Both the position numbers and the translations under genes were made by a program. From an uncultured Gammaproteobacteria bacterium (lineage in GTDB: Bacteria > Pseudomonadota > Gammaproteobacteria > UBA9214), in the NCBI GenBank assembly GCA_942491995.1, contig CALOCX010000003.1, forward strand, positions 139,710-203,709: 64,000 nucleotides of DNA, given 5' to 3'. Of the stretch, positions 6,367-6,563 are shown one piece after another; the stretch's first letter is position 1, and every line of letters starts with the position of its first letter. Under the pieces are notes generated by a model. The model had not been told where the DNA came from. It searched no databases and worked only from the letters and a program-made list of their open reading frames with translations.

Positions 6367-6462
6367 ATGCTAACCCTGATCAAAGATCTGCTTATCGCTA
6401 TTTTCCTTGTCGGCATTACCCTGGTATGGGTTGCCAGCACACACGCGACGACGCTGTATTAA
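6367..6462 (+). CDS. 31-aa hydrophobic leader-like peptide; paralogous remnant of the cytochrome signal peptide
   Basis: MLTLIKDLLIAIFLVGITLVWVASTHATTLY, with RBS AAGGGGA. N-terminus and upstream RBS context (GGGGATTCCACAATG vs GGGGGATCCACAATG) parallel the cytochrome start at 6838 (MQTFLKDLLLGVFLVCLTLAF). Confidence 0.35.
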   Translation: MLTLIKDLLIAIFLVGITLVWVASTHATTLY

Positions 6463-6533
6463 CAGGCATCAAATTCCGCGGGTAGTCACATCAAGTGGTG
6501 TCAGTCTGTCGTGACGGCACCCCTCTTCCCCAG

Positions 6534-6563
6534 GGCGGCAGCTTTCAGGCCGTCCTTTTTTTT
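6534..6563 (+). terminator. Rho-independent terminator after the leader ORF
   Basis: GGCGGC-AGCTTTCAG-GCCGTC stem-loop (one G.U pair) followed by 8 T at 6556-6563. Confidence 0.6.

Follow-up and report, generated by a model that had tools for sequence, protein, structure and literature searches.

A window of 64,000 nucleotides (nt) from an uncultured gammaproteobacterium (contig CALOCX010000003.1, positions 139,710 to 203,709) was analysed for a small transcription unit, here called unit A, and for the open reading frame of 31 codons that it carries (ORF31; positions 6367 to 6462 of the window, forward strand; product MLTLIKDLLIAIFLVGITLVWVASTHATTLY). Unit A is self-contained and about 250 nt long, and consists of a sigma-54 promoter, a Shine-Dalgarno (SD) sequence, ORF31 and a hairpin plus a terminator that ends in eight T residues (T8). 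It is divergent from the gene for a PAS/sigma-54 activator and is followed in the window by the unit of a multihaem cytochrome, here called unit B, and by the ccm operon. A first-pass annotation, made from the sequence alone, had listed the 31-amino-acid (aa) frame, its ribosome-binding site (RBS), the sigma-54 promoter and the hairpin with its T8 terminator, and all of these elements were found to be present.

The sigma-54 promoter of unit A (6288 to 6302, forward strand) is the -24/-12 element TGGCATTGTTCTTGC, with GG at 6289-6290 and GC at 6301-6302, and its spacing is that of the canonical TGGCAC-N5-TTGC-like arrangement. Every ORF31 locus has it at a near-constant distance of 79-82 nt ahead of the start codon, and a sigma-54 element also precedes most of the remoter stub units described below. 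The sole other copy of TGGCATTGTTCTTGC in the 64-kb window is found at 6767 to 6781, ahead of the cytochrome gene; two copies alone have no significance, as 21 of 100 shuffled sequences reached this number. The enhancer (upstream activating sequence) of unit A occupies positions 6137 to 6205 and contains inverted TGTCA-N5-GTCA sites at 6143-6156 (forward strand) and 6186-6199 (reverse strand), some 115-170 nt ahead of the predicted transcription start, with an inverted repeat (I1) of 20 nt that is 85% complementary. An AT-rich spacer separates these sites from the sigma-54 element. The enhancer block is repeated at 6609-6697 and is conserved in relatives. Analysis of the whole window revealed six TGTCA-N5-GTCA motifs against 0.62 expected, four of the six in this region. 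The enhancer sites and the divergent gene with PAS, Sigma54_activat and HTH_8 domains, syntenic in all loci, are together what would be expected of a sigma-54-dependent unit with its putative activator.

Judged from the usual spacing to the -12 element, transcription of unit A is predicted to start near 6314, which gives ORF31 a 5' untranslated region (5'UTR) of 53 nt. The SD sequence AAGGGGA (6353-6359) lies 7 nt ahead of the ATG, so that ORF31 has the start codon and SD sequence expected of a small coding ORF. The part of the 5'UTR at 6331 to 6366 (forward strand) is conserved, with a mean pairwise identity of 92% against 78% in the first half of the 5'UTR. A third TGTCA-N5-GTCA site is present within this conserved part at 6338-6351, at about +25 from the predicted start and directly before the SD sequence; its role could be that of a downstream activator site, or it could belong to an element that sequesters the SD sequence. 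In the predicted fold the GGGG of the SD sequence pairs with codons 3-4 of ORF31 (ACCCUG), and synonymous variation is absent in those codons.

The region 3' of ORF31 contains a first hairpin (hairpin 1; 6494 to 6524, forward strand), a pyrimidine-rich (C-rich) linker CCCCTCTTCCCC (6520 to 6531, forward strand) that is unpaired in all folds, and the intrinsic terminator (6532 to 6563, forward strand). The terminator has an 8-bp stem AGGGCGGC/GCCGTCCT (6532-6539/6549-6556), a loop of 9 nt and the T8 run at 6556-6563, and with a free energy of -13.6 kcal/mol (z -2.25) it shows the G+C-rich stem-loop and U-tract of an intrinsic terminator. It was overlooked by a simple scanner because the loop limit of the scanner is 8 nt. 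Homologous terminators were identified in 17 lineages, with compensatory pairs from GC to AU (five sequences) and from CG to UA. Hairpin 1 shows one compensatory pair (CG to GC) in relatives; most lineages fold a hairpin at the equivalent place, though only a weak one in some (L020 and L046 among them), and that of the deep lineages could not be brought into register by MAFFT. The stop codon of ORF31 lies 69 nt from the terminator stem, with the independent hairpin 1 in between. Folding of the predicted transcript (6314-6566) gave hairpin 1 and the terminator in both the minimum free energy (MFE) and the centroid structures, with no competing structure, and the fold of the whole transcript was not more stable than those of shuffled sequences (z -0.67).

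Inspection of the ORF31 product revealed the n/h/c layout of a Sec signal peptide: an n-region with K6/D7, a hydrophobic h-region at residues 8-23, and T25-H26-A27 at the -3/-1 positions, followed by four residues. The peptide is homologous to the signal peptide of the cytochrome and identical to it at 12 of the first 21 residues; the resemblance noticed in the first-pass annotation is thus borne out, and it extends into about 300 nt of DNA homology that had not been seen there. The cytochrome signal peptide is putatively cleaved after V-K-A, a position equivalent to T25-H26-A27 of ORF31. Positions -3 and -1 are invariant in all nine peptide variants, while position -2 varies. Recognition of the ORF31 peptide by signal peptidase is possible, because T25-x-A27 aligns with the V-K-A site of the cytochrome and the -3 and -1 residues do not change. 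No mature exported domain follows the putative cleavage site of ORF31, only TTLY (ATLF, AALY or ATLI in variants). The product is presumably a hydrophobic, signal-anchor-like peptide of 31 aa in the inner membrane, oriented N-in/C-out. The replacements found among its variants are conservative (I5V, L9I, I17L, V20A, A23T, S24T, H26Q, T28A, T29A and Y31F/I). The public protein collection contains the exact peptide and six variants, all of 31 aa. The peptide matched no Pfam or NCBIfam family, and phmmer against 1.84 billion representatives returned its own cluster only, plus one chance transmembrane stretch.

Relatives of the locus were collected by several routes. A search with the activator, taking one genome per species, gave seven loci in metagenome-assembled genomes (MAGs) of uncultured gammaproteobacteria, with 71-82% identity. 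A search with the cytochrome family gave L008, a contig in synteny with the window that matches it at 95-100% identity in the flanks and at only 50-85% in the part equivalent to 6200-9600. Loci L010-L044 were retrieved via the peptide, from at least 25 metagenome samples (JGI, ENA, NCBI and Logan). Sediment samples of the JGI Ga0316187-Ga0316197 and ENA ERZ27251xxx series are among those with the locus. An activator-based scan of metagenomes, unbiased toward the ORF, added 27 loci, and L072 was found via a mis-called protein of 65 aa that matched a concatenated ORF31 and ORF32 query. In all of the L010-L044 contigs the promoter-ORF-terminator unit is divergent from the activator gene. The locus is chromosomal, single-copy and syntenic wherever it was found, and the length and sequence of ORF31 are conserved in 36 fetched copies.

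Comparison of the loci revealed six architectures. In the first, present in the window, L008 and many other contigs, the activator gene, the ORF31 unit, the cytochrome unit and the ccm operon follow one another. In the second, the ORF31 unit is followed directly by ccmA and there is no cytochrome gene (L010, L019, L030-L039 and L045). In the third, a deletion equivalent to 7019-9709 of the window has cut the cytochrome to a stub of 35 codons (L021 and L024). The fourth comprises more distant loci with a single unit, where the first ORF after the sigma-54 promoter always starts M-x-x-[ILF]-[ILVF]-[KR]-D-L-[LF] and encodes 29 aa (L070), 31-32 aa (L048, L069 and L072), 55 aa (L049 and L063), 59 aa (L068), 64 aa (L067) or 67 aa (L062 and L071); a full cytochrome stands at this place in L064 and also in L009, where it has a different signal peptide. 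In the fifth architecture there is no ORF, and the sigma-54 promoter is followed by about 165-190 nt, a terminator and ccmA (L001, L003, L006, L052-L057, L060 and L066). In the sixth, L050 and L051 have a small ORF with an unrelated signal peptide; the promoter of L051 drives an ORF of about 55 aa that begins MKHVIPAILAGLLLLIGSLLLGGNSFAADV..., and in L006 (5540-5700, reverse strand) and L052 an ORF of the L051 type has been deleted while the 3' region and terminator are retained. The DNA upstream of the activator gene in L005 and L007 is unrelated to the window. ORF31 is intact where the cytochrome is frameshifted (window), internally deleted (L021 and L024) or absent (L010, L019 and L030-L039). 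The first-pass annotation had named absence of the frame from relatives that keep the cytochrome gene as a refutation; this is not what was seen in the close clade, where the ORF is present beside intact, broken or missing cytochromes.

Comparative analysis of the ORF31 clade yielded 13 distinct nucleotide sequences and nine peptide variants, all of 31 codons. The ORF (93% mean pairwise identity) and the RBS block (92%) have no gapped columns and are the most conserved parts of the intergenic unit; the enhancer block, promoter and terminator are 86-87% identical, and identity is 62-78%, with gaps, in the variable spacers and segments of the UTRs. Variable sites in ORF31 are distributed over the first, second and third codon positions as 8:3:14. 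Read in the frame of ORF31, the changes are 16 synonymous and 12 non-synonymous, against 6:22 and 2:26 in the other two frames and an expectation of about 31% synonymous (binomial P=0.003). As many loci had been retrieved via the peptide, the test was repeated on five independently found sequences (window, L008, L045, L046 and L047). In these the synonymous divergence of the ORF (pS, 0.08-0.40) follows that of the activator gene beside it (0.13-0.29), and the non-synonymous divergence (pN) is 0.03-0.09. Thus pN is 3-6 times lower than pS, and the corresponding ratio (dN/dS) is about 0.15-0.4 in the close clade.

A second clade (L048, L069 and L072; 31-32 aa) gave the same signature. L048 and L072 are 87% identical in an ungapped alignment of the ORF, but only 44% in the 5'UTR and 64% in the region 3' of the ORF; eight changes in this clade are synonymous and four non-synonymous (P=0.011). 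Charged residues, proline and stops are absent from the hydrophobic core of the 29-, 31- and 32-aa versions, although these show 20-33 differences in 81 nt; under neutral simulation an uninterrupted core has a probability of 0.013-0.047 per pair. A conserved frame and length with an excess of synonymous changes, as expected of a coding ORF, is therefore found in both sub-clades; the exceptions are the frameshifted L065 and a dN/dS of about 1 between deep lineages. The pattern of a neutral pseudogene is not found, as pN is well below pS in both sub-clades and the ORF has no indels, whereas its flanks are gapped and only 44-78% identical. Chance ORFs of 31 codons are common, yet ORF31 is conserved in both length and sequence and is not an artefact. 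These nucleotide comparisons show ORF31 as a frame under protein-level purifying selection in two sub-clades that has been maintained as a coding gene.

Comparison of units A and B pointed to their common origin. Positions 6129-6430 and 6609-6900 align over about 300 nt with 79% column identity, covering the enhancer repeats, the promoter, the 5'UTR with its RBS and the first 20 or so codons, and the promoter 15-mer is identical in the two units. The regulatory region of unit B (6609 to 6837, forward strand) contains the enhancer repeats at 6609-6697, the sigma-54 promoter at 6767-6781 and a 5'UTR with an SD sequence, and is a paralogue of 6129-6366. A 3' module is also present at the end of unit B (9873 to 9933, forward strand), with a hairpin at 9873-9897, a CTTTTTC linker and a terminator at 9905-9926 plus a T-run, and is a paralogue of 6494-6563. 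The duplication junction was located at 6589 to 6609 (forward strand), where GGTGTTGGACTATCCGGCCCG, the -35 half of a sigma-70-like ccm promoter, is ended by the start of unit B and directly abuts its enhancer. In relatives without the cytochrome the same block runs on as ...GGGGTAGTATGATGCC and is followed by ccmA; L010 matches the window to 6612 and then jumps to 10238. Because a second 3' module ends the cytochrome unit and a -35 half follows the ORF31 terminator, we conclude that the segment that runs from the enhancer through the terminator to the -35 half was tandemly duplicated. On these alignments copy A (6129-6608) is the truncated twin of cytochrome unit B (6609 to about 9977), and their likeness is one of true homology.

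The A and B copies form separate old lineages, with identities of at least 89% among A copies and at most 72% between A and B, and they separated before any of the sampled strains diverged from one another. Stubs of intermediate length (55-67 aa) retain decayed N-terminal sequence of the cytochrome. We infer the direction of evolution, cytochrome first or stub first, from the stubs that keep decayed cytochrome residues (L062 and L068); for the A lineage it is not proven. The proposal in the first-pass annotation that ORF31 is a decayed duplicate of the 5' end of the cytochrome gene thus holds for its duplicate origin and fails for its decay: in the window the stub is intact, and it is the cytochrome that has at least six frameshifts.

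Overall, our analysis suggests that the stretch 6288-6563 is probably an independent monocistronic unit, derived from a truncated duplicate of the cytochrome unit and kept as the gene of a small hydrophobic protein. The best reading of ORF31 is that of a lineage-restricted gene of this kind which would be co-induced with the cytochrome. A small membrane peptide had been among the options of the first-pass annotation, and the protein-level purifying selection in two sub-clades makes it the best supported of them. With regard to origin, a whole unit of enhancer, promoter, 5'UTR, signal peptide, cytochrome and 3' hairpin with terminator was, on the sequence comparison, tandemly duplicated; copy A would then have lost the cytochrome body, leaving the signal peptide and four residues, and the stub has since been held by selection as a protein-coding gene. 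With regard to expression, the divergent PAS/AAA+ activator would bind the TGTCA-N5-GTCA enhancer sites and then turn on sigma-54 holoenzyme at TGGCAT-N5-TTGC, giving a transcript with a good SD sequence and the 31-codon ORF that would end at the intrinsic terminator. Through the duplicated enhancers the PAS activator may co-induce the peptide and, where it is functional, the cytochrome; because both units share enhancer and promoter, the peptide is expected to be made under cytochrome-inducing conditions. As a guess, the peptide may be a small membrane modulator in the biogenesis of the envelope or of c-type cytochromes, or in feedback on the regulatory system.

Several observations weigh against the reading of ORF31 as a protein-coding gene. 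Between deep lineages dN/dS is about 1, although deep pairwise values over 24 codons are too noisy or saturated to inform. In L065, the activator of which is 88% identical, there is a +1 frameshift after codon 7 and R/H in the core, while the promoter, RBS and terminator are kept. The ORF is short, the selection tests rest on 12-28 substitutions and many of the sequences are from populations that are related to one another. The peptide itself served to retrieve loci L010-L044, a bias that the activator-based sample partly removes. The peptide has no homologue of known function in Pfam, NCBIfam or the phmmer search. Finally, sister clades without an ORF at this site keep the sigma-54 promoter, a conserved 3' domain and a homologous terminator, and therefore the transcript, and not the peptide, may be the older functional entity.

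Transcripts of this ORF-less kind, sigma-54-driven and about 165-190 nt long, lie between the activator gene and ccmA in L001 (9555-9735, reverse strand), L003 (9480-9660, reverse strand), L053-L057, L060 and L066. In the L001 group their 5' half is variable and the last 85 nt or so are highly conserved (CCUCUCUCCGGGGCCGGG...); the conserved 3' domain of about 85 nt reads AACCUCUCUCCGGGGCCGGGGACGUC.AUGACGCUUCCGGGCCCGUUUCCCAAGGGCGACCCCACUCGCCCU8. These transcripts are candidates for a new family of sigma-54-dependent small RNAs (sRNAs). Searches of Rfam with the window region and two ORF-less relatives gave sub-threshold noise only. A hairpin and a pyrimidine-rich linker precede the terminator in most lineages; a C/U-rich linker as such is present at this place in all of them, and its sequence varies between lineages (UCAAGUUCCCC and CCUCUUACCC). 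Masking of the SD sequence by the C-rich linker was considered, as hinted by L008 (GGGAA with UUUCCC), and was rejected since L040 and L013 break the pairing.

It is in the light of these relatives that a trans-acting, sigma-54-dependent sRNA has to be weighed, in which the RNA would be functional (for example through its 3' module, with the linker as an anti-SD seed) and the ORF an incidental remnant of an mRNA. ORF-less transcripts from an orthologous promoter with a homologous terminator and a conserved end, the recurrent hairpin, C,U-rich linker and terminator layout, and the retention of promoter and terminator in L065 despite its broken ORF are all in line with such a role, as are the precedents of sigma-54-dependent sRNAs that neighbour an activator gene or are under its control (Qrr/LuxO, GlmY/GlrR and CrcZ/CbrB). 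However, the best-conserved part of unit A in the close clade is the ORF with its RBS and not the 3' module, and substitutions pile up at third codon positions in the ORF frame only, for which RNA pairing gives no explanation. Furthermore, the linker is variable in sequence and its covariation with the SD sequence was not found, so that a seed role of the linker is speculative; the fold of the whole transcript is at the level of shuffled sequences and no Rfam family matches. We consider an sRNA as the sole product rather unlikely. The non-coding regulatory RNA of the first-pass annotation therefore survives as a possible second function, to which the ORF-less sister transcripts speak, and not as the only explanation, which would leave the codon-position pattern unaccounted for. 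Since the ORF-less relatives have the 3' module in common with unit A, the RNA may have a riboregulatory role alongside the peptide, and the transcript is in this sense a dual-function candidate.

By description, the transcript would resemble the dual-function sRNAs (SgrS/SgrT, RNAIII/delta-haemolysin, SR1/SR1P and AzuCR/AzuC) in its length of about 250 nt, short ORF, structured 3' domain and intrinsic terminator, and differs from them in that no conserved covarying seed was found and the ORF is better conserved than the RNA module. By analogy, unit A is like the sigma-54 sRNA genes (Qrr/LuxO, GlmY-GlmZ/GlrR, CrcZ/CbrB and NrsZ/NtrC) in its -24/-12 promoter, enhancers, nearby activator and short terminated transcript, and unlike them in having no Rfam match, a PAS activator without an NCBIfam equivalog and an ORF under coding selection. 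It also resembles sRNAs and small genes born from degraded coding genes or mRNA 3'UTRs, as a promoter and 5' stub are joined to the parental 3'UTR and terminator and the relatives form a graded series of full gene, 55-67-aa stubs, 29-32-aa stubs and no ORF; unlike decay-born sRNAs, the stub is still under protein-level selection and is not purely non-coding.

A bolder form of the protein-coding reading, and a doubtful one, is that the cargo-less signal peptide, made from an enhancer and sigma-54 promoter like those of the cytochrome, has become a regulator that would occupy or tune the export or maturation machinery (Sec/YidC, signal peptidase or the adjacent Ccm system for haem ligation) or would feed back on the sensor, with the 3' module as a riboregulator derived from the cytochrome mRNA. 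If this were so, the free signal peptide would have been selected for its likeness to that of the cytochrome, and a single mRNA would have been caught evolving into a small protein gene and, in sister clades, into a pure sRNA. ORF31 is like Sec-type signal peptides and the free peptides derived from them (such as the enterococcal pheromones from lipoprotein signal peptides) in its n/h/c layout and small-x-small site. It is unlike Sec signal peptides in that it has no cargo and only four residues past the putative site, and at 31 aa it is too short for co-translational targeting.

That ORF31 is a non-functional leftover, a young pseudogene fragment of the duplicated cytochrome whose promoter is kept since the enhancer also serves the activator gene, is improbable. 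Its clear descent from a truncated duplicate, the many stub lengths (29-67 aa, one frameshifted) and the deep dN/dS of about 1 are what a decaying fragment would leave. Nevertheless, synonymous sites of ORF31 have diverged like those of the neighbouring gene while non-synonymous sites have not, the flanking non-coding DNA is at 44-78% identity with many indels while the ORF has none, and an equal signature is present in the second clade. In addition, the -24/-12 element and the RBS are kept across lineages, and the A and B copies had already separated when the sampled strains began to diverge.

A short ORF close to the promoter with a terminator behind it, and directly upstream of ccmA in the cytochrome-less relatives, recalls a cis-acting leader or attenuator, in which translation of the leader would control read-through into the cytochrome gene (window) or ccmA (relatives). 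This role, suggested in the first-pass annotation, is very unlikely because no structure rivals the terminator and everything downstream has its own promoter: neither the MFE nor the centroid fold contains a competing antiterminator pairing, 69 nt and an independent hairpin separate the stop codon from the terminator, and the downstream genes are served by a second enhancer and sigma-54 promoter here and by the sigma-70-like ccm promoter, TTGGGC-17/18-TATGAT, before ccmA in relatives. Conservation of amino acids along the whole hydrophobic core is also atypical for attenuator peptides. Equally hard to credit is a type I toxin-like peptide that damages the membrane on induction, for although its size and hydrophobicity are like those of TisB, Ibs, Hok and TimP-type peptides, there is no sign of an antitoxin RNA, whether antisense or adjacent, the ORFs called on the minus strand of the 3' region vary in length (31 or 44 aa in relatives and 71 aa in the window) and look spurious, the peptide derives from an ordinary Sec-type signal peptide with a promoter shared with a respiratory cytochrome, and the locus is chromosomal, single-copy and syntenic throughout.

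Returning to ORF31 as the gene of a small hydrophobic protein, its nearest counterparts by analogy are the small membrane proteins of less than 50 aa (MgrB, AcrZ, CydX, MgtS and PmrR), which it would resemble in size, a single hydrophobic helix, its own RBS and condition-specific transcription. Like them it belongs to a class that is often overlooked by annotation and in which selection acts on hydrophobic character over exact sequence. It differs from these five in having no sequence relationship to them, a sigma-54 promoter and a demonstrable origin from a signal peptide. Small hydrophobic proteins and small sigma-54 transcripts are known kinds, of which ORF31 is a new member, restricted to its lineage and with an origin that is unusually easy to trace; searches of the literature gave no description of the ORF31 unit. 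The history of the locus is legible from the sequences, in that a unit was duplicated and one copy was reduced to promoter, signal peptide and terminator. The stub was kept under selection while the parental cytochrome became dispensable, being intact, frameshifted, deleted or absent depending on the strain. The loci thus offer a natural series for the birth of small protein genes and sRNAs from mRNAs, and ORF31 is a candidate, open to experiment, for a signal peptide that is itself the gene product in an uncultured gammaproteobacterial lineage from sediment. For annotation, the 31-codon gene is to be added and the cytochrome of the window flagged as disrupted.

The multihaem cytochrome gene (6838 to 9799, forward strand) has PKD/cadherin-like C-terminal domains, and its coding sequence is broken into at least seven segments (frames 1-2-3-1-2-3-2) relative to intact homologues of about 922 aa. 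At least six frame changes are needed to keep it collinear with the L064 protein, which is intact and at least 921 aa long, and its indels relative to L023 lie outside homopolymers. An intact cytochrome of 922 aa is present in L011, L012 and L040. The window gene is a probable pseudogene, or else reflects assembly or consensus errors in a strain-hypervariable region. The cytochrome belongs to the PF14522 family, which is widespread; only the closest relatives share the signal peptide of the ORF31 type. The two divergent alleles of the cytochrome, ADVVPTEIQMPG... and ATVVPDVIQQPG..., are about 67% identical in aa sequence and have a nearly identical signal peptide and promoter.

Downstream of the cytochrome unit lies a complete sigma-70-like ccm promoter (9972 to 10001, forward strand), consisting of TTGGGC, 18 nt and TATGAT ahead of ccmA (ORF from 10199); its promoter function is predicted from the motif. 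The TTGGGC-17/18-TATGAT block also stands after the terminator and before ccmA in L048, L049, L062, L067 and L072. A conserved block of this form is present between terminator and ccmA in all lineages, and after the ORF31 terminator just its -35 half is present (6592-6609).

The divergent activator gene (4721 to 6157, reverse strand) encodes a bacterial enhancer-binding protein with a PAS sensor, a sigma-54 AAA+ domain and a Fis-type helix-turn-helix. Pfam matches were Sigma54_activat (3.9e-62), PAS_4 and HTH_8, and NCBIfam equivalogs were all below the cut-off. The true start of the gene is probably the internal ATG at 6109 (MLTKRK...), which has a GGGGGG SD sequence upstream: the orthologues have a non-ATG codon (V or L) where the upstream extension begins with ATG in the window, and all share MLTKRK/MLPTRK. 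The exact product of 478 aa that starts at 6157 was not found in the protein collection, because the upstream start is probably wrong. The PAS domain (protein residues about 75-115) has a Cys/His-rich stretch, CYKISHNNDAPCHESGEDCPH...C.H.HH, which is suggestive of a metal or redox cofactor.

Beyond the activator gene, the region 3980-4230 resembles tandem repetitive extragenic palindromic (REP)-like elements, and indels distinguish its version in the window from that in L008. Short interspersed repeats of about 30-78 nt were found in both orientations at 4015-4054, 4168-4221, 17482-17557 and 21612-21641, and more copies are present in L008.

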